DNA from: a virus
Virus record (IMG/VR): IMGVR_UViG_3300001201_000001
Location: 1 to 47,783 of that record
Strand: one strand, 5' to 3'
DNA length: 47,783 bases
A program made the translations under genes and the position numbers. Shown in pieces: positions 2,277-47,783 of this stretch; the stretch's first letter is position 1; each line of letters opens with the position of its first letter. Under the pieces are notes generated by a model. It was not told where the DNA came from. It was given only the letters and a program-made list of their open reading frames with translations, and made no database searches.

Positions 2277-3020
2277 TTAAAGTAATTCCATCTGCGTCCC
2301 CTTGGTCATCCGGTTCTGCGCGATGTTGAAGTAGTGCGTTGATAATTCCCAGCCGATGTAGGTGAACCCCATCGCGGCCGCGCAACGGATCGACGCGCCG
2401 TAACCGACGAAAGGGTCGCAGATAACCGTCTCGGGTTTCCCGCTGGTGTAGTCCCGGTATAGGGATTTGTAAAGTGCTGGCGGCTTTTCGTTGGGGTGTT
2501 GAATTTGGGCGGGGTGGACGCGGGTGGTTCGTATGACGCTGAACGGGCGCTTGCCTTCAAATTCGTACCGGCCTTTGGTGCAGTAGAGTATCAGTTCGTG
2601 CTGCGGTGCCGGGCATCCCTTCAAGTCTCCCATCCCGTGTAGGTTCTTATCCCATACAATCTCGTAAACCAGGGTGAAGCCAGCGGCGCGGGCGGCGGCT
2701 TGGAAGACGGCCGCAACATCCCAACGGTAAAAGATGAACAGGCGACCGCCAGGCTTTAGGATTCGGTAGGCTTCATCAAGCCATCCGACGAACGGCGCGT
2801 CGTCGTTCAGTATCTTCTCCAACGGTCCCCGGTTGCACCGGTGGTTACTTTGGAAGTCGATCCCATAAGGCGGGTCGACGGGCATCAAGTCTACGGAATC
2901 GGATGGAATTGACGGAAGACCAACGACGGGGTCAAGGCAGTCCGCGTTGATAAATTTACTTTTCACGGCGGGCGCGTTTAATTTCTGCCAGGCCGACTGC
3001 AGTGGTGGCGTTGGTAGCAA
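2277..3020 (-). CDS. DNA methyltransferase, beta-class N6-adenine/N4-cytosine (N6_N4_Mtase family), orphan
   Basis: DPPYG (motif IV) precedes FVGYGAS (motif I, FxGxG) near the C-terminus. No restriction enzyme nearby. An in-frame GTG at 2966 would cut the overlap with the upstream gene from 65 to 11 nt. Confidence 0.8.
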   Translation of the reverse strand: MLPTPPLQSAWQKLNAPAVKSKFINADCLDPVVGLPSIPSDSVDLMPVDPPYGIDFQSNHRCNRGPLEKILNDDAPFVGWLDEAYRILKPGGRLFIFYRWDVAAVFQAAARAAGFTLVYEIVWDKNLHGMGDLKGCPAPQHELILYCTKGRYEFEGKRPFSVIRTTRVHPAQIQHPNEKPPALYKSLYRDYTSGKPETVICDPFVGYGASIRCAAAMGFTYIGWELSTHYFNIAQNRMTKGTQMELL

Positions 3021-3321
3021 TGACGGGAATCCCCAAATCGAGGGCGAGGTTGGCTTCGATAATCATTCCGGCGCTAACGGTGTGGCCATAGAGCCGGATG
3101 ATGTCCACCGCTCCGGACTTGATCAGCGCTTCGTTGTTAGCCATCCCCCGGGCGCGTTGTTTGGGGTCGTCATCATCAAGGACGCGAAGGTCTACGAGGT
3201 AAGGGGCAAACGGGACGACGTGCGGCTCGGTCGTGTTGACCTGGCGGACGATAGCCTCGACGCGCTTGATGTTGGCGGAAACGTCCCCGCCGATGGGGTG
3301 TGCGATGTAAGCGATTAACAT
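2956..3321 (-). CDS. possible nucleoside 2-deoxyribosyltransferase-like (DUF4406-like) protein
   Basis: 121 aa. N-terminal YIAHPIGGD and C-terminal VSAGMIIEANLALDLGIPV resemble the Rossmann-like deoxyribosyltransferase/Rcl fold with a catalytic Glu. Confidence 0.45.
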   Translation of the reverse strand: MLIAYIAHPIGGDVSANIKRVEAIVRQVNTTEPHVVPFAPYLVDLRVLDDDDPKQRARGMANNEALIKSGAVDIIRLYGHTVSAGMIIEANLALDLGIPVIATNATTAVGLAEIKRARREK

Positions 3322-3637: not shown

Positions 3638-4609
3638 TTATTCACCGGCTTCCCGGCGTGTTTGTAGATCGGCCTGGCTCTTGATGTGGTTGGCCATCAG
3701 TTCCGCCGCGTCCTTGGTGTTGATGAAGGTGTCGGATTCCATTCGGACGTTCGGGCGGGCCGACCGTTCAAACGGGTCACCCTTCGCGGCCAGGTGGTCG
3801 TTGTAGATTTTGTTGGCCGACCATTCGCTGCGGTCGTCAAACATTGTGGAGAACATCGTGTACAAAGTCGCGTAGTCGATGTTAAAAGTTCGGTTGGTCG
3901 CGGTGTCCTGACCGCTTGCCAGGTTGAGGACCATCTTCACCTGAGCCAACGTCAGGCTGGGGAAGTCCTTGATGATCGCCGCCGCCAGTTCCCGAACCAA
4001 CGCCGGGGTGATGTCCGACCGCTTCCCGAACTTCAACAGGAACAACTCGACCATCTTGGCAATCAATGCCTCGGCCTTGGTGTCGCCTTTGTAGGCACGA
4101 AGGGAAACCATCGTCACCGACCGGAAGCGTTCACAGTCTTCCCACGTTCGCGGGCGGATGGAAGTATCGAAGGCGAACTCTTTGGCTTCGTAAGCGGCAA
4201 GCGCCGGGCCGATGTCGAAGCGTTGCCGTCCGATGATCCCCCGAAGGCGCTCGAGGTCTTCGTCGTCAGCTTCGGCAACCAACGCGCCAAACCGATAAAA
4301 GAACTGGGAATCGATTCCCATCATCCGCTTCCGGTTCGGGGTCATCTTTTCGGTGGTGACCGTCTTGGTGATGATCGCGCCAGGCTTGCCGTCTTCATCG
4401 ACTTCACGCATCGGAACCATCAACGGCTTGCCAAGGATTCCAACCCGGGGGTTTCCGTCTTCATCCAGCGGGGTGTGTAGAACAGGCTCCTCCTTTTCCG
4501 TGGTGATCGTTCCGGCGTGGCCGCGAAGATGTTCCAAGATGTCCCGGCCACGTTGCGGGACTTCGGCCAAGGTAAGCGGCTGGTCGTATGCGGTTAATTG
4601 CTGGCTCAT
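3638..4609 (-). CDS. hypothetical protein of the replication module
   Basis: 323-aa ORF starting 3 nt after the stop of the initiator gene; no motif recognised. Confidence 0.75.
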   Translation of the reverse strand: MSQQLTAYDQPLTLAEVPQRGRDILEHLRGHAGTITTEKEEPVLHTPLDEDGNPRVGILGKPLMVPMREVDEDGKPGAIITKTVTTEKMTPNRKRMMGIDSQFFYRFGALVAEADDEDLERLRGIIGRQRFDIGPALAAYEAKEFAFDTSIRPRTWEDCERFRSVTMVSLRAYKGDTKAEALIAKMVELFLLKFGKRSDITPALVRELAAAIIKDFPSLTLAQVKMVLNLASGQDTATNRTFNIDYATLYTMFSTMFDDRSEWSANKIYNDHLAAKGDPFERSARPNVRMESDTFINTKDAAELMANHIKSQADLQTRREAGE

Positions 4610-4611
4610 GA

Positions 4612-5583
4612 TTAGAAGTTTGCGAGGGTGTCGAATTGTTGGGCGGATTCCGTGTCCGGTACATATCCGCCGCCGCTTGCTTCAGCGGCTTTGGCATCGA
4701 TGAAGATTTGCGCGAACTTCGGGTCATCCTTGGCCATCCGAGCCGCGTCCAAGTATCCCTCGGCTTTTGATCCGAACAATGTGGAAGGGCGAACCCATAC
4801 CCGGGACTTTGGTTTGTCGTTCCATTCGAAGACCTTCATCGTGACCATGTCCTTCAAATGGTCGACGGTGTACTTGCGCTTTAGTAGGGAAATAATTCCG
4901 GCGCGGTTTTTTTTCCCGCCGGGCATATCCTGACGGGCGAAGTCGCGGCCCGCGATGGTGTTCAAAAATATCAACACCTCGTCGGCTTCGGCATTGCGGT
5001 CAACCGCGCTTTTCTTTTTCGCGGAATTTTTTCTTTTTCCCGGAGACGCTGTCGCGTCAGAATCATCGAAGAGGGAAGACTGGCCAGCGCCGCCGTCGTG
5101 GTTTACCACGATGCCCGACACGGTTCCTTCTTCCTCTTTATATTCTTCTTTATGGTATTCTTCTTTATATGTCGGATTTAAATCCGAGCCAACTCGGATT
5201 TGATTCCGACCTGTTTCGGATTTAAATCCGAGTTTAGTCGGATTTAAATCCGAGTTTTCCCGGTAGTTGGCGTTGTTCCATTGCTTCGCGTATTCGCTGA
5301 CAACGTGGACGAGGTCTTTCGTTCCATGCTTTTCAAGCATAACCAGCCCCTTTTTTTCAAGGCTTCGGTAGATTCGGTACATGGTGTCCACCTTGGTCGT
5401 GACGATGGGAAGATTTGAACAGGCCATCGGCTTCGCGGCGAAGTAGTAAATGCGGCCACCGATGACGATGGATTCGGCCCAGTTGGATAGTCGGGTAAAG
5501 AACCAAAAAACAGCGGCTTCGCTTTGGGTCAGATTGTGACGCAACGCGAACACCTGGTCGATGTAGAGGGTGCGTTGGATCAT
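4612..5583 (-). CDS. replication initiator, DnaD-like with a phage C-terminal domain (Phg_2220_C/TIGR02220-like)
   Basis: The C-terminal segment VLIFLNTIAGRDFAR..LLKRKYTVDHLKDMVTMKVFEWNDKPKSRVWVRPSTLFGSKAEGYLD matches the conserved phage replication-protein C-terminus. The N-terminus is wHTH-like. The start is set at ATG 5583 because the ORF-track GTG 5703 extension crosses a terminator hairpin. The iteron array lies in the interdomain linker. Confidence 0.7.
   Translation of the reverse strand: MIQRTLYIDQVFALRHNLTQSEAAVFWFFTRLSNWAESIVIGGRIYYFAAKPMACSNLPIVTTKVDTMYRIYRSLEKKGLVMLEKHGTKDLVHVVSEYAKQWNNANYRENSDLNPTKLGFKSETGRNQIRVGSDLNPTYKEEYHKEEYKEEEGTVSGIVVNHDGGAGQSSLFDDSDATASPGKRKNSAKKKSAVDRNAEADEVLIFLNTIAGRDFARQDMPGGKKNRAGIISLLKRKYTVDHLKDMVTMKVFEWNDKPKSRVWVRPSTLFGSKAEGYLDAARMAKDDPKFAQIFIDAKAAEASGGGYVPDTESAQQFDTLANF
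5141..5168. repeat. two AT-rich 13-mers (TATTCTTCTTTAT) 15 bp apart; possible DNA unwinding element
   Basis: 5141-5153 and 5156-5168 are identical and lie within an AT-rich stretch (5125-5171) directly flanking the iterons. Confidence 0.5.
5172..5253. repeat. iteron array: four 16-bp palindromes TCGGATTTAAATCCGA at exact 22-bp spacing (putative origin of replication)
   Basis: Copies at 5172-5187, 5194-5209 (TCGGATTTGATTCCGA, 2 mismatches), 5216-5231 and 5238-5253; three are perfect palindromes. The array sits inside the initiator gene. Confidence 0.7.
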
Positions 5584-5611
5584 TTGAAGTAGATAAATTT
5601 CATGATTGTTG

Positions 5612-5664
5612 TTTGTAAAATTGAAGAACCCGCAGCGAACGGGTGAGAGCGTTCGTGCGGGTTC
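5612..5664 (-). terminator. rho-independent terminator candidate
   Basis: Stem GAACCCGCA/TGCGGGTTC (5626-5634/5656-5664) plus inner stem CGAACG/CGTTCG, followed on the coding strand by TTCAATTTTAC. It lies downstream of the 5775..6263 gene. Confidence 0.6.
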
Positions 5665-5774
5665 GTGGGTTTGGTAGCCACCCAGGTCGTGCAAGCCTCT
5701 CACCGCTTGGACGATCTGTATCGTGACACGAATATAGTCCTAAGACCGGACCCGCGCAAGACGTAGCGGCTTTT

Positions 5775-7004: not shown

Positions 7005-7658
7005 TTATTTGATGTGGTTGACGACACCGTTCTCGTCAGGCTCTCCCCACTTTCGTTTGGTGTTGATCAAGTGTTTACGCTTGGCGGCGCTTAACAGTTG
7101 GGGCATGGTCAGCTTTGCCCGTCTTGCCGCTTGGATCAGTAGGATAAATGCGTCGGCATATTCCAAGGCATCGAAGGGGGCGGCAATAAGTTCGTCCACC
7201 TCTTGACGAAGGTGATGAAGTGGGGGAACAGGATCGCCGGCACCGCCAAAAGTCTTGTCGGCGAACGCGGTGATTTCACTTTGGAAGGCTTGCCATTCGT
7301 CCAGTTGCTCGTCGAAGTCTTCGGGTCGGTAGTCCTCCAAGGTTTCCAATATAGCCGAACGGTCAGGATGATCGTCAGGGACCAGGGTGGCCAGTTGGTT
7401 CACCCGGCGGTGATACATCCCGAACATAACGATCACGCTCTCGGTGTCTTCGATGTGTCTCCGGACGGCGTGGTATCTGTCGTGAAGTTCCAGCGCGATG
7501 TTGCGAATGATTGTCGTCTGCTTATCGGTAATGGTCACCTTTTTCGGCTGGTCCGGTAGTAGGTCAACGTAAGCCTCGAGGAGATTCCTGGTGTTTGAAT
7601 TTGGTGGGATAGACTGGCGCAGTTTATGCAAGGCCATTCCTATTTCGATGTTTTCCAT
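7005..7658 (-). CDS. protein with a C-terminal MazG-like/DUF550-like nucleotide pyrophosphohydrolase domain
   Basis: 217 aa; LHHLRQEVDEL..EYADAFILLIQAARRA..INTKRKWGEPDENGVVNH resembles all-alpha MazG/DUF550 domains. Confidence 0.5.
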   Translation of the reverse strand: MENIEIGMALHKLRQSIPPNSNTRNLLEAYVDLLPDQPKKVTITDKQTTIIRNIALELHDRYHAVRRHIEDTESVIVMFGMYHRRVNQLATLVPDDHPDRSAILETLEDYRPEDFDEQLDEWQAFQSEITAFADKTFGGAGDPVPPLHHLRQEVDELIAAPFDALEYADAFILLIQAARRAKLTMPQLLSAAKRKHLINTKRKWGEPDENGVVNHIK

Positions 7659-7685: not shown

Positions 7686-8456
7686 TTACGCGGGAACGGG
7701 TTCGCCCCAGCGCTTTAGTTTGGCGGCTTCGATGTTGGCGGTGATTTCTTCCAACCTGGCCACCGCTTCCTCGAGTCGGCCTTCCATCTGTTTGATGAAC
7801 GGCTCGTCGCGGGGGATCAACATCCAGGCGATGCGGTCGCGGGGGTCATCAAAGTCCGGGTGATAGGAAAAGAACAGGGTCGCGTCGGTTTCGGCTACCC
7901 AGCACTGGTGTTGCGTTTGCAGCCAGTATTTGTGTTCGATTTTTTTCAGGTCGTCCGGCTTTTGCATTTCTAGGAATTGCGTGTGGACGTTCGGCATATA
8001 GGGCGCTTTGCCTTCGACGGTGTAGTTCATGGAACGAATCAAGCCGTCCGGCGTGGAGCCGTGGTAGTCGCCACGAAGTAGGAATTCCTGGTCGTCACCG
8101 TAGTCGGTCACATCGTAGCCAGTCATTTCAATCAGTATCTTCATCGCCGGGACTTCGTGACGATGGCCCCAGGCCATTTCTTTCGTCGTCACCCGGGGTA
8201 TCTTCGCGCCCTTCCGTTGGGCTATCTTCTTTCGGATGTAGGTATCGGCACCCTTGGCGTAAGAGTTGCCCAGCTTCGTGGTGAAGAACGGGGAAATGGC
8301 GGAAGACGTGAAGCGGCCGCGCCGTTTCTCTCGCCATTCGGCCTCGCGTTCTGCGCGTATTCGGGCCAGCGATGCGGCGGCGAAGGCTTGCGGGTTGTCC
8401 GCCATAGCCTCCGCCGTCGTCATCAGTTGGAACCCGTTAAGGTTTTCCAATGCCAT
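7686..8456 (-). CDS. YqaJ-like (lambda Exo-type, PD-(D/E)XK) recombination exonuclease
   Basis: 256 aa with RRGRFTSS, WGHRHEVPA, STPDG, EGKAP and YWLQTQHQ motifs in the YqaJ order. Confidence 0.75.
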   Translation of the reverse strand: MALENLNGFQLMTTAEAMADNPQAFAAASLARIRAEREAEWREKRRGRFTSSAISPFFTTKLGNSYAKGADTYIRKKIAQRKGAKIPRVTTKEMAWGHRHEVPAMKILIEMTGYDVTDYGDDQEFLLRGDYHGSTPDGLIRSMNYTVEGKAPYMPNVHTQFLEMQKPDDLKKIEHKYWLQTQHQCWVAETDATLFFSYHPDFDDPRDRIAWMLIPRDEPFIKQMEGRLEEAVARLEEITANIEAAKLKRWGEPVPA

Positions 8457-9103: not shown

Positions 9104-9901
9104 TTAGCGATGGCAAAAAACGCCACAGCTTTTCTGTTCTTCGCCGCTGTCGTAAAATTCAGACAGATCGCCGATTAGGTTCATTTTTTCAGTCGCTATG
9201 AATTGCCGAAGGGGGGGCATATTCGACCGGATTCGGTAGTACTTGTTTCGGTTGTCTTGAATGTATTCCTCAAGGGCTTGGACCTCTTGAATTTCATCCA
9301 GTGCCAGGTGAACCATTGCCGCGAATTCTTTCTTGCTTTTGAACGGGCAATACTTACAACCGCCCCGGCTCATGTATGCCGGAAAGTCGGGAAGCAATCC
9401 AAGCGGCTCGAGTAATTCCTTGCAATCTTCGCGGTCGAGTTCGTCTTCAACTAGCGGATACTTGTAGGCGATGTTCTTCCCCATTTCAAGGTTTCCGATT
9501 CGGTCTTCGTCTTCGTCAGCGTTCAAACCGATCAACAAATCGCACTCACCTTGCCGTTGCAGGAATAGGTCGATGGGGATCACTTTGAAAAGCGCGGTGC
9601 AAAATCTTCGCCGAGCGGATGGCATAAACTTTCGGTAGATAATGTAGTCCGTCAGGTTGTCAACTTTTTCCGTTCCGACCGTTACGTTGGCTTTAATCTT
9701 GACCAGTTTGAAGTCGCCGTCGTGGTATTCGGTCAGCATCTTCTCGACGTATTCCAGGCGTTCATACATTCGATCATGCTCCCCGCCAGTATCGCAAAAG
9801 ATAGCGGTCGCGCCTTTTCCGTAAAGGACACACATCGCGGTGGATTCTACACCTCCGGAGAAACTGATAAACTTCGGCCTTGCGTCGTTACTGGTCTTCA
9901 C
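9104..9901 (-). CDS. PAPS-reductase-like / DndC-like PP-loop ATP pyrophosphatase
   Basis: The GTG 9901 start overlaps the TGA of the upstream gene (GTGA). PP-loop SFSGGVEST and C-terminal Cys pairs CKYC and CGVFC. The ORF-track extension to 10267 overlaps the 9898..10203 gene and looks non-coding. Confidence 0.7.
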   Translation of the reverse strand: MKTSNDARPKFISFSGGVESTAMCVLYGKGATAIFCDTGGEHDRMYERLEYVEKMLTEYHDGDFKLVKIKANVTVGTEKVDNLTDYIIYRKFMPSARRRFCTALFKVIPIDLFLQRQGECDLLIGLNADEDEDRIGNLEMGKNIAYKYPLVEDELDREDCKELLEPLGLLPDFPAYMSRGGCKYCPFKSKKEFAAMVHLALDEIQEVQALEEYIQDNRNKYYRIRSNMPPLRQFIATEKMNLIGDLSEFYDSGEEQKSCGVFCHR

Positions 9902-10203
9902 TTTTGATGTTTGTCGAGGGCTGTTTTCAAGTCCTTCAGTTCCTGAATTTCTTCGCGGATGGTGTCTTCCAAGATACAAAGAAAGTGATTGAAAGCGGCG
10001 GATCGGTTCGGCCGTTTCGTCAGTAATTCCTTCGCGTCTTGCCATTCGACGAGGAGCGCTTTGGTGTCCGGGTGGAGTTGAATCTTTCCGATTTCTTCCC
10101 AGCGGTCCGTCTGTTTGAAGACGCGCTCCTCGAGGGTGTCGGTGGGGTTTACTAATTCCGGGTTGCTTCCGGGGCGGATGACGTTGTTGATGTCGATGGC
10201 CAT
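9898..10203 (-). CDS. hypothetical protein
   Basis: 101-aa ORF; its leader ATCATCACCCCCACAATCCCCC is a degenerate version of the box. Confidence 0.7.
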   Translation of the reverse strand: MAIDINNVIRPGSNPELVNPTDTLEERVFKQTDRWEEIGKIQLHPDTKALLVEWQDAKELLTKRPNRSAAFNHFLCILEDTIREEIQELKDLKTALDKHQK

Positions 10204-10236
10204 AATGGGGGATTGTGGGGGTGATGATAATGGTGA

Positions 10237-10713
10237 CTATTCGGCGGATGGTTCCACTATCGGCCAAACAAAGGCGGAAGTGTTGCCATGTTCGGCGCGG
10301 TGTTTACGAAGCGCGGTAGCGGCGGACCAACCGGCATCGGTCAGGGTGACGTGGCCATAGTTTTCCGTTGCCTGGGCGCTGTTCTTTTGGTGAAGGATGT
10401 CCCCGGATTCCATCGGTTCGTGTTCGTGGATCGTCAGAAAACCAGCCTCGGCCAAGTCCTGGACACAATCCCAGTCGTCGTGCTTTAGCTGTTCACCGCC
10501 GTCCCGGAGTCGTGTTCCGTACTTGTCACCAAACCCCGCGCCGAGACGACGGGAGGCAAGCCGCCAGTTGTGTCGGTGAGTTCGCATATGGGGGTTCGGG
10601 GAAAGTTTGAACCGGCCGGTGTCGGTGACTTTGGTTTCAACGTATAGAAACGTGGTCCGGTGATCTTTGCCGAACTGGTCGGGCTTGATGAAGTTGGGGG
10701 AAGGGTGTGACAT
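10237..10713 (-). CDS. hypothetical protein (possible winged-helix segment)
   Basis: 158-aa ORF; DWDCVQDLAEAGFLTI..VTLTDAG is wHTH-like; weak. Confidence 0.65.
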   Translation of the reverse strand: MSHPSPNFIKPDQFGKDHRTTFLYVETKVTDTGRFKLSPNPHMRTHRHNWRLASRRLGAGFGDKYGTRLRDGGEQLKHDDWDCVQDLAEAGFLTIHEHEPMESGDILHQKNSAQATENYGHVTLTDAGWSAATALRKHRAEHGNTSAFVWPIVEPSAE

Positions 10714-46135: not shown

Positions 46136-46564
46136 TCAACCCTCCCATTCTTCCATAATTTCACCAGGCGGGCGGCGCTGGCCACTCCAGCGGGATAACG
46201 CGACGGCCGCAAGGTGTAAGGTTTCAAATTTAAAGGAACGGCGGTCAGTTCCTTCGATGTCCCTGACGACAACGCCGGAGCCATCGTCTTCCCGGATCAG
46301 TCCGCAAAGACCATGAGCCGGGGCGTACCGAAGGATTTCATATTGATCGTGCCAATGCTTTCCGGTGTGGCCGGAATCCCATCCGAGGCTAATGTCATCG
46401 ATGAAGCATTTGACCGCGTCGTCATTTCGGAAGTCTTCCCAGTCACCTTTGGGATGAAACACCACGTAGGGGTTCGCGCCGTAGGTCGTTTTGACCACCC
46501 CCATTTGTTCGTCGCGGGTGACCAATAGGCCGGGGCTGATAAATTGTTTCGTCAGTTCAATCAT
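46136..46564 (-). CDS. hypothetical protein
   Basis: 142-aa ORF; ATGA overlap with the upstream gene. Confidence 0.7.
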   Translation of the reverse strand: MIELTKQFISPGLLVTRDEQMGVVKTTYGANPYVVFHPKGDWEDFRNDDAVKCFIDDISLGWDSGHTGKHWHDQYEILRYAPAHGLCGLIREDDGSGVVVRDIEGTDRRSFKFETLHLAAVALSRWSGQRRPPGEIMEEWEG

Positions 46565-47649
46565 TTCGATTTTGATTTAAGTCGTTTTTTAAAGTCTTTC
46601 TCCCGCGCCTTTTTTTCGGCGGCGGCGATTCGGTCGGCCTTCATTCTCACGATGTCAGCAATCACATCGGAGACGGTTCGATATACGACGAGGGTGGCCG
46701 CGTCTCGGCTGTGTTCGTTGTTCCCGCGCTTGGCGGGGAATCCACACCAGTCTTCGAACTGGACTGCGGTGGACTTCGTGGCGTATGGGATAGCGCTAAG
46801 TTTGCGGAGCGTTTTGATCGTCTTCCCCTTGATGGTCGTCTCTTTGTAGGCTTTCTTCCGGGAAGATGGCGCGACTTCAAAAACAGGAACACCGCTGTCG
46901 TGTAGTTTCTTGATCAAGTATTTCCCGGCGGCTTGGTTTTCGCCAACATTGCGGCTACTTTTAAACTGGCTCCGGACGATGGTGGCCATGTCTTCAAAGT
47001 TCATCTTTCCCCGCATGACCTGGGTGATGGCCCACTTGCATTTTTGCCAAGCGTTGAAGCTGACGGAATCCAAGGCGGGGTTTTCTACGACGGCCACCGC
47101 ACGGTTGAGGTCCGTCGATTCGCAGACCCACTTGATGACGCTGTCGAAGTCGGACGTGTACAGGGTCAGGTGTCCGGTCGCGGGGACGTACCTGGCCACC
47201 CCCATCGTTATCCAAGATGGATCGAAGCCAATCAAGATATCGCGGTCCGGTGTGTTTGAGTCTACCATAGTTGGGGAATTGGGTGGCCGAAATATAACCA
47301 CATTAGGAAAAGGATGAAGCCCGCGCCGAGGTGTTGTTGTAGATCGTAGATGAACCAGGTGTAAGGGATGGCGAACAACAACGCTGTGGATTCGCTTTTC
47401 GTGTTTCCTAGCGTTCCGAAGACGAAGACAAGCGAAGGGGATGGGGATCAAGAAACCTGGGACCGATTCGTTTATTTCCTTCATCCGGCGGGGCATCTTA
47501 TTCGTGATTCCGGTTTTGGATAGGAACAGCAGGGGGAAGTGGAGGCAGTTGTAAACCGTGTCCCGGCGGTTCAACAACTTCGCGGCCTGGCGGTCTTTCT
47601 TATTTAGCCAGCGGCCGAACTTGGTGGTCTTTCTCTTGCGGCGCTTCAT
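46561..47649 (-). CDS. two-domain nuclease candidate: N-terminal GIY-YIG-like (T5orf172-like) plus C-terminal RuvC-like resolvase domain
   Basis: 362 aa. The N-terminal segment LFLSKTGITNKMPRRMKEINESVPG..ARKHEKRIH is T5orf172-like. The C-terminal segments ILIGFDPSWITMGVA, VVENP and NEHSRDAATL fit RuvC-type carboxylate motifs. Confidence 0.5.
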   Translation of the reverse strand: MKRRKRKTTKFGRWLNKKDRQAAKLLNRRDTVYNCLHFPLLFLSKTGITNKMPRRMKEINESVPGFLIPIPFACLRLRNARKHEKRIHSVVVRHPLHLVHLRSTTTPRRGLHPFPNVVIFRPPNSPTMVDSNTPDRDILIGFDPSWITMGVARYVPATGHLTLYTSDFDSVIKWVCESTDLNRAVAVVENPALDSVSFNAWQKCKWAITQVMRGKMNFEDMATIVRSQFKSSRNVGENQAAGKYLIKKLHDSGVPVFEVAPSSRKKAYKETTIKGKTIKTLRKLSAIPYATKSTAVQFEDWCGFPAKRGNNEHSRDAATLVVYRTVSDVIADIVRMKADRIAAAEKKAREKDFKKRLKSKSK

Positions 47650-47783
47650 ATATCCAAGCGGGTTTGCGTGGCCTTCACTTTCTTGGCGTGTCGGTCGATG
47701 ATGGCCTGGTATTCTTTGTCCGTCATTTCGGTCAGGATGTCGCGGGCCATTTCGAGTCGGGTAAATTGATTGTTGGCGTGGTG
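47646..47783 (-). CDS. hypothetical protein; C-terminal part of the ORF that crosses the window ends (47735..47783 duplicates 1..49)
   Basis: The sequence LTEMTDKEYQAIIDRHAKKVKATQTRLDI-stop follows in frame from position 1. TGA 47646-47648 overlaps ATG 47649-47647 of the next gene. Confidence 0.6.
   Translation of the reverse strand, partial: HHANNQFTRLEMARDILTEMTDKEYQAIIDRHAKKVKATQTRLDI
47735..47783. repeat. 49-bp terminal direct repeat, identical to 1..49
   Basis: See the first feature. Confidence 0.95.

Follow-up and report, generated by a model that had tools for sequence, protein, structure and literature searches.

A probable lambda-like replication origin of phased TCGGA-N6-TCCGA palindromes within the initiator gene of a phage genome

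Introduction

Where does the phage of the IMG/VR virus record IMGVR_UViG_3300001201_000001 start to replicate its DNA, and what is the role of four evenly spaced palindromes that lie inside its replication initiator gene (4612..5583, minus strand)? The window analyzed here is the whole stretch of 47,783 nucleotides. An earlier note on this DNA had proposed that the palindromes and an adjoining A+T-rich stretch form an origin of the lambda type, which is embedded in the coding sequence of the initiator. The present analysis leads to a similar answer. The region 5125-5253 is most likely a theta-type replication origin within the initiator gene, as in phage lambda, and replication would start there. 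That the palindromes are the binding sites of the initiator can be said with slightly greater assurance. The architecture is the classic one of lambda, with its origin in gene O, and of plasmid pSK41, with its origin in rep, and nothing is overturned by the findings. The locus is a sound but fairly ordinary member of a large, little-described family that is found in phages of several bacterial phyla.

Results

The iteron array

A pattern search recovered the array as it had been described in the earlier note. Four palindromes of the form TCGGA-N6-TCCGA start at positions 5172, 5194, 5216 and 5238, with start-to-start distances of 22/22/22 bp. The sequence TCGGATTTAAATCCGA is exact at 5172, 5216 and 5238, while the copy at 5194, TCGGATTTGATTCCGA, has two mismatches, both of which are in its centre. 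The 16-bp sites and the 6-bp spacers together place eight half-sites in a strict 11-bp series. The former claim that all sites lie on one face of the helix was correct insofar as the sites are about two turns apart, but not with respect to exactly one face, because two helical turns are slightly shorter than 22 bp and successive sites are thus rotated by about 34 degrees.

The array stands out from the rest of the genome. When up to three mismatches were allowed, five matches to the palindrome were found where 0.29 would be expected, and five matches were not reached in any of 100 dinucleotide-preserving shuffles. The pattern TCGGA-N6-TCCGA with at most one mismatch has 12 matches versus 3.7 expected, and the exact ones are these four only. 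Tandem Repeats Finder reported two arrays, one of 22-bp units at 5171-5254 and one of 12-bp units at 5131-5170, which are the only substantial tandem arrays outside of a gene for a collagen-like fibre, and no second iteron-like array is present in the genome. Single copies with one mismatch are located at 4760-4775 (TCGGCTTTTGATCCGA), in the region coding for the C-terminal domain of the initiator, and at 3732-3747 (TCGGATTCCATTCGGA), in the downstream gene; the number of about 3.7 such copies expected by chance per genome has to be kept in mind for both.

The earlier note had also stated that the array is translated into low-complexity repeats, and the coding strand, which reads RENSDLNPTKLGFKSETGRNQIRVGSDLNPTYKEEYHKEEYKEEEGT, bears this out. 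In coding order, iteron 1 (5238..5253) is a perfect palindrome TCGGATTTAAATCCGA and is read as SDLNP. Iteron 2 (5216..5231), equally perfect, is in the next frame and is read as GFKSE. Iteron 3 (5194..5209) has intact half-sites and an altered centre; its coding strand is TCGGAATCAAATCCGA, which is read as RNQIR. Iteron 4 (5172..5187) is again a perfect palindrome, adjoins the A+T-rich tract, and is read as SDLNP, followed by a conserved CATAT (PTY).

The A+T-rich tract

Directly adjacent to iteron 4 is an A+T-rich tract with a purine/pyrimidine skew (5125..5171), which is a candidate DNA-unwinding element. It contains two direct repeats and a degenerate third copy. As claimed before, the 13-mer TATTCTTCTTTAT is found twice, at 5141 and 5156, that is, 15 bp apart from start to start, and it occurs nowhere else in the genome. 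The segment 5125-5174 has a G+C content of 30%, and only 0.37% of the 50-bp segments of the genome have a value that low. The least stable 40-bp duplex of the whole genome lies inside the tract; it starts at 5130 and has a calculated stability of -43.1 kcal/mol, compared to a mean of -59.0 kcal/mol (standard deviation 3.8). On the plus strand, 81% of the tract 5125..5171 are pyrimidines, and the sequence following the iterons is 78% purine on the coding strand. Repeated 13-mers are also characteristic of bacterial unwinding elements, of which the repeats of the tract are reminiscent.

The tract is not a peculiarity of this phage. In 26 of 27 distinct related loci the 50 nt after the last iteron (in coding direction) are richer in A+T than the locus, and in the relatives they open with a conserved CA(T/A)AT. 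The last iteron is followed by a direct repeat of 10 nt or more in 21 of the 27 loci, and 14 of these 21 repeats have a period of 15 nt; the corresponding numbers of loci with a repeat are 2 of 27 upstream of the array and 3 of 27 in shuffled sequence. The sequence of the repeats varies by subfamily, e.g., ATAAAGAAGAATA in this phage and AATCAGGTAACCAGT in F116-like phages. The two 13-mers thus appear to be the local form of a conserved family element, and the repeats with their 15-bp period may have a function in unwinding. Three AATCAGGTAACCAGT-like repeats of 15 bp are found right after the iterons at L045 2986-3031, L044 2936-2980 and L047 2948-2992; they are common to F116-like Pseudomonas phages and the "Bacillus phage" Dartukuta. 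The Dartukuta initiator is very close to those of the Pseudomonas phages, which makes its recorded Bacillus host doubtful enough to be checked.

The initiator protein

The initiator gene encodes a protein of 323 amino acids (P0001), and the homologues begin at a position equivalent to its start codon, the ATG at 5583. P0001 matches phrog_428, "replication initiation protein" (6e-17). Its C-terminal part contains a Phg_2220_C domain (PF09524; residues 204-278, 4750..4974, minus strand; 2.8e-15, 56.6 bits versus a Pfam gathering cut-off of 27), the presumed recruiter of the replication machinery. The match to the NCBIfam model TIGR02220 is under the cut-off (40.1 versus 66.65), and a sequence search of the PDB with the C-terminal domain yielded no match.

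An AlphaFold2 model was built with 24 homologues. The N-terminal domain (residues 1-105; 5269..5583, minus strand) was modelled with a pLDDT of about 90 and a winged-helix topology, including the helices 51-57 and 65-77 and a beta hairpin at 81-94. It is the presumed reader of the iterons. The family-conserved residues K64, D66, T67, Y69 and R70 sit in or just before the predicted recognition helix 65-77, and the residues 81-94 would form the wing. The C-terminal domain is helical in the model. Between the two domains lies a linker (residues 106-190; 5014..5268, minus strand), which is encoded by the iterons, the A+T-rich tract and a downstream low-complexity sequence. Because it was modelled with a pLDDT below 50, iterons and tract are predicted to encode a disordered linker, and the DNA at this position can therefore carry a site. 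AlphaFold2 and Pfam thus agree with the former placement of the array between an N-terminal domain resembling a winged helix and a Phg_2220_C-like C-terminal domain.

The identity of the N-terminal domain is less clear-cut. Pfam and NCBIfam contain no model that was found to match it, and the Pfam scans gave no match to Phage_rep_O (PF04492) or RepA_N (PF06970). The best fold match of the model in the PDB is the N-terminal domain of staphylococcal plasmid RepA (4pql, 4pt7; E 2e-3, TM 0.47 on the target), followed by generic winged helices of the ArsR and MarR types. DnaD_N was matched by 1 of 14 N-terminal domains of the family (E 0.0019), and DnaB_2, the DnaD C-terminal domain, weakly by the C-terminal domain of one relative. 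The label "DnaD-like", under which the initiator had been introduced, is not backed by the sequence of P0001, which itself matches neither DnaD_N nor DnaB_2 in the Pfam scans; what speaks for the label are weak winged-helix hits and the fold match to plasmid RepA, which is weak as well.

Selection acts on the DNA

An alignment of five phages was used to compare the conservation of the DNA, namely, the window, L051 (79% identical), L052 (58% identical), and the more distant L054 and L055. Every one of the 40 half-site columns is invariant. In the upstream flank this holds for 3 of 37 columns, in the spacers for 1 of 15, and in the centres of the sites for 9 of 24. The last site is TCGGATTTAAATCCGA in three of the five phages, and it is followed by CATAT in all five. 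Among 48 distinct open reading frames (ORFs), sites are found in each of the three frames (90/44/14), which yields three unrelated peptides. A spacing of 22, which is 1 modulo 3, shifts the frame from site to site. The same codons, TCG GAT TTA AAT CCG, TTA included, are used in genomes with a G+C content of 29% to 60%. The fact that the sites are read in all three frames indicates that selection acts on the DNA.

The reading frame also explains the imperfect iteron. In one of the three frames a perfect TTTAAA centre would read CGG ATT TAA and would thus introduce an in-frame TAA stop. Perfect palindromes account for 46 of the 90 sites in the first frame, 6 of the 44 in the second, and none of the 14 in this stop frame. 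Iteron 3 of the phage is in the stop frame and reads CGG AAT CAA ATC CGA (RNQIR). Its two mismatches are the price of the open reading frame.

Distribution in other phages

A sensitive blastn search of 50,697 phage records with the 2.7 kb that surround the gene had the array itself as its only match, with 82.6% identity over 5165-5256 to the Mannheimia phage vB_MhS_587AP2. In that phage the array is situated in a gene for 257 amino acids directly upstream of a Phage_lambda_P gene (1.8e-47), i.e., at the position of lambda O, and an A+T-rich tract is present on the same side of the array as here. A pattern search of viral contigs for a perfect site followed by a second TCGGA led to 41 loci. In about half of them, 3-6 exact sites form an array with distances of mostly 21-23 bp; in the others, most of which belong to one near-identical group, a single exact site is accompanied by degenerate ones. 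Almost all of the 41 loci lie in an ORF of about 230-350 amino acids, at about residues 105-175.

Eight further relatives were chosen by protein similarity alone, so that they are not biased towards the motif. The motif is present in 8 of 8, contrary to the absence from orthologues that the earlier note had named as an argument against an origin. The comparison of iteron positions that it had suggested showed that the motif is at the same position of the gene, in seven of the eight as an array of 3-8 exact TCGGA-N6-TCCGA sites within nt 315-470, which begins 315-335 nt into the gene. The seven are Flavobacterium phage FCL-2, Pseudomonas phage phiAH14a, the F116-like phage LKA5, Pseudoalteromonas phage Y7, phage Dartukuta, a Flavobacteriaceae contig and a Pseudomaricurvus contig; the eighth, a contig of a gut phage, has one exact site and degenerate copies.

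The N-terminal domain plus linker also served as query of a full HMMER search, in which 1.84 billion representative proteins were covered and which yielded 776 clusters (at 50% identity) with E<=1e-3 and 444 with E<=1e-10. For these proteins a peptide proxy of the motif in its three frames was used, i.e., S[DE]xxP, [FLIV]GxxS[DE] and R[IMTNKSR]x[FLIV]R. Among the best 145 representatives, 141 contain at least one such signature peptide in residues 96-190 and 110 contain at least three. Altogether 462 signature peptides were counted in their linkers, versus 15 elsewhere in the proteins and 16 after the linkers had been shuffled. The palindromes are therefore a hallmark of the family. A single-protein search of viral contigs with the N-terminal domain alone retrieved no relatives; the alignment A1 was too divergent for a pattern scan, and the narrower alignment A2 gave two genome loci.

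The C-terminal domains of the family vary and are of the Phg_2220_C type, DnaB_2-like, of the lambda O type, or without assignment. An example is the protein P0029, which combines an N-terminal domain akin to that of P0001 (2e-18) with a C-terminal domain that is 51% identical to that of lambda O (8e-24). Because of this variation, the N-terminal domain, the iterons and the unwinding tract behave as one cassette that is joined to differing C-terminal domains. A search of plasmids gave one match, the Leptotrichia wadei plasmid pJMUB3934p2 (29.6 kb, Fusobacteriota; L057 3220-3380), which has the same N-terminal domain, four TCGGA-A-tract-TCCG(A/T) sites, an A+T-rich tract and a Phg_2220_C-like end. 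It was rejected as a clean minimal replicon, as the gene is apparently frameshifted between its parts.

An exact-string literature search with seven iteron variants, with subscription literature outside its reach, found no paper, and the genome papers of the Mannheimia phage and of phiAH14a do not mention iterons.

Genome context

The whole assembly is one contig of 47.8 kb with a G+C content of about 55%. Because its bases 1-49 recur at 47735-47783, it is the assembly of a circular or circularly permuted phage genome, and a 5'-open ORF (46561..47781) crosses the junction of end and start of the circular record. The minus strand carries every gene. In its portal and other virion proteins the phage is similar to phages of Bacteroidota, such as those of Croceibacter, Flavobacterium and Bacteroides. 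Scans of about 40 ORFs with PHROGs or Pfam revealed no helicase, primase or polymerase, in agreement with what had been noted earlier.

Directly downstream of the initiator gene is the gene for an ORFan of 323 amino acids (P0003; 3638..4609, minus strand), which has no match in Pfam, PHROG or NCBIfam. One homologue was found among 5.8 billion proteins, with 71% identity, in the syntenic contig L051. Its AlphaFold2 model has a pLDDT of 49 and is too poor for a structure search. The gene is at the position where relatives carry lambda P or DnaB, e.g., L052, in which DnaB and SSB follow the initiator gene. P0003 is therefore a candidate for a novel helicase recruiter.

In the region upstream of the initiator gene (5584-5700), the minus strand can form a terminator-like hairpin at 5644-5628, and a duplex that starts at 5582 ranks second in the genome for low stability. 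This region is probably the promoter and leader region of the initiator gene itself. The early region further encodes a protein with a dATP/dGTP pyrophosphohydrolase-like domain (7005-7658), a YqaJ/RecE-type exonuclease (7686-8456), a PAPS-reductase-like protein (9104-10267), an N6/N4 DNA methyltransferase (2277-3020) and a DUF7768 (nucleoside deoxyribosyltransferase-like) protein (2956-3321). This set of five is syntenic in L051.

Discussion

Comparison with known origins

The layout of the locus matches that of the lambda origin, as had been proposed. The annotated iterons of lambda are at nt 348-432 of gene O, with spacings of 20/24/23 and a purine-rich A+T tract next to them; the iterons of the phage are at nt 330-411 of its initiator gene and are followed, in coding direction, by the same kind of tract. 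In both cases four dyad-symmetric iterons with A-rich centres are about two helical turns apart, and they are 18 bp long in lambda and 16 bp here. The two-domain layout of lambda O, with a DNA-binding N-terminal domain and a recruiting C-terminal domain, is also shared, and members of the family have a lambda O C-terminal domain (P0029) or lambda P as a neighbour (Mannheimia). However, there are also differences. The sequences of the iterons are unrelated, TCGGA-N6-TCCGA here and ATCCCTCAAAACGAGGGA in lambda, the N-terminal domain has no Phage_rep_O match, and a homolog of lambda P is replaced by an ORFan downstream. Using HHpred, lambda O has been described as a protein with an N-terminal domain of the HTH_36 type and a C-terminal Phg_2220_C domain, with ori-lambda between them (Brezellec et al., 2017, PMC5509034). 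A sequence homology to lambda O is not claimed on evidence of our own, as the hhalign comparisons were not significant, and the homology is thus based on the literature.

The second well-known example is pSK41. The winged-helix N-terminal domain of its Rep protein binds four Rep boxes in the centre of the rep gene, A+T tracts aid bending, Rep can do without the origin-encoded linker, and the C-terminal domain is host-specific and recruits primase (PMC5703833). The phage initiator shares with the RepA_N plasmid initiators (pSK41 Rep; 4pql, 4pt7) the origin in the centre of the initiator gene, and they are the best fold match of its N-terminal domain in the PDB. In contrast to them it lacks a Pfam match to RepA_N, the fold match is weak, and pSK41 is a plasmid of Bacillota while the locus described here belongs to a phage with structural genes of the Bacteroidota type. 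In the hybrid initiator of pPR9, which combines an N-terminal domain of the HTH_36 type with a pSK41 C-terminal domain, N-terminal domain and origin have been exchanged as a module of about 500 bp with a constant C-terminal domain (PMC5703833). A similar modularity of N-terminal domain and origin is seen in the family of the TCGGA-N6-TCCGA initiators; pPR9, however, is a plasmid, has other iterons and was tested experimentally. For ORF43 of the Francisella phage KIRK, a Phg_2220_C protein, the authors annotated four iterons within the gene and an A+T-rich region as a lambda-like origin (PMC7924643). Like P0001, it is a replication protein of a phage and combines the Phg_2220_C domain with an internal peptide repeat; the annotation of its origin is likewise computational.

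A possible mechanism

On the basis of these similarities the following mechanism can be envisaged. Dimers of the winged-helix N-terminal domain would bind the four TCGGA-N6-TCCGA dyads. We infer this binding from the co-inheritance of N-terminal domain and iterons and from the conserved residues at the predicted recognition helix. The A/T-rich centres and the spacing of about two turns would allow the bound DNA to bend or wrap, in analogy to the lambda O-some and pSK41 Rep. The resulting strain would then open the adjoining region 5125-5171 with its repeats of 15-bp period, for which a low stability was calculated. Finally, the Phg_2220_C C-terminal domain, perhaps together with the 323-amino acid ORFan, would bring in the helicase and the primase of the host. 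A recruitment of host proteins is suggested because no phage-encoded helicase, primase or polymerase was found and because lambda P or DnaB follows the initiator gene in relatives.

Alternative explanations

Several observations weigh against an origin of the lambda type at this site. In single-sequence hhalign comparisons with lambda O the N-terminal domain gave no signal (family-profile probability 0.1%), and the C-terminal domain gave an E value of 0.011 and a probability of 3.8%. No helicase loader was recognized among the scanned ORFs, and the gene downstream of the initiator gene is an ORFan. Several of the comparative samples hold related sequences, so that the counts do not represent independent events. 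In addition, the cumulative GC skew does not turn at 5.2 kb and reaches its extreme near 16-17 kb, where early and late genes meet. GC skew was rejected as a test for the origin, because it is uninformative in a genome with every gene on one strand.

The lack of support from the GC skew would also fit the view that the palindromes bind the initiator or another regulator only as an autoregulatory operator or transcriptional roadblock within the gene, and that the origin is elsewhere. Sites within the protein's own gene could throttle its transcription, and iteron-binding initiators often autoregulate, as is generally known and has been discussed for pSK639 (PMC5703833). Nevertheless, this explanation is improbable, because the sites are always beside an A+T-rich tract with direct repeats, which here contains the least stable duplex of the genome, because the genome contains no other array that could serve as iterons, and because the same layout is a proven origin in lambda and pSK41. 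Moreover, autoregulation and a role as origin are compatible with one another. Even less probable is a function of the array in another DNA transaction, i.e., packaging (as a pac site), recombination, partition, or the binding of a host factor. It is general knowledge that phased dyad repeats are also present at centromere-like and pac sites, but the array has been co-inherited with one DNA-binding domain of initiators, irrespective of C-terminal domain, packaging genes and host phylum, and it is part of the replication module, with lambda P or DnaB as a neighbour in relatives.

It could also be argued that the repeats have been kept for the protein, as a linker of SDLNP and GFKSE peptides, and that the palindromes of the DNA are a by-product, and indeed SDLNP, SEKNP and NPTY recur across the family. 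We give hardly any credence to this explanation, which is effectively refuted by the presence of one DNA motif in three frames with unrelated peptides (S[DE]xxP, GxxS[DE], RxxxR). The use of identical codons, including TTA, irrespective of G+C content, the invariance of all half-site columns next to variable peptide spacers, the modelled disorder of the segment, and the dispensability of the corresponding protein segment of pSK41 all point in the same direction. An origin with initiator-binding iterons thus remains the explanation that we favour.

An origin cassette in phages of several phyla

A more general proposal, towards which we lean only slightly, is that the locus represents an origin cassette that has not been described as a family before. 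It would consist of a winged-helix N-terminal domain without a Pfam model, 3-8 iterons whose TCGGA-N6-TCCGA core hardly varies, and an unwinding tract with direct repeats, mostly with a 15-bp period, and it would be joined to interchangeable C-terminal domains of the Phg_2220_C type, the lambda O type, the DnaD type and others. Such a cassette would comprise at least 776 protein clusters and would be present in phages of Bacteroidota and Pseudomonadota, in a plasmid of Fusobacteriota, and in a phage recorded on a Bacillus host. If this is true, a single short rule on the DNA would be enough to find the origins of hundreds of phage genomes. The annotation rule would be to look for TCGGA-N6-TCCGA arrays in the linker of initiators, and it would cover a domain that has no model in curated libraries.

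For this phage and hundreds of related phages and prophages, the results offer a precise and testable prediction of the origin and of the binding site of the initiator. The locus is also a clean example of a protein-coding and a protein-binding code on the same DNA. Last but not least, the distribution of the iterons suggests that the DNA specificity of one winged-helix initiator domain has been nearly fixed across phyla, while the domain that recruits the replication machinery has been swapped.

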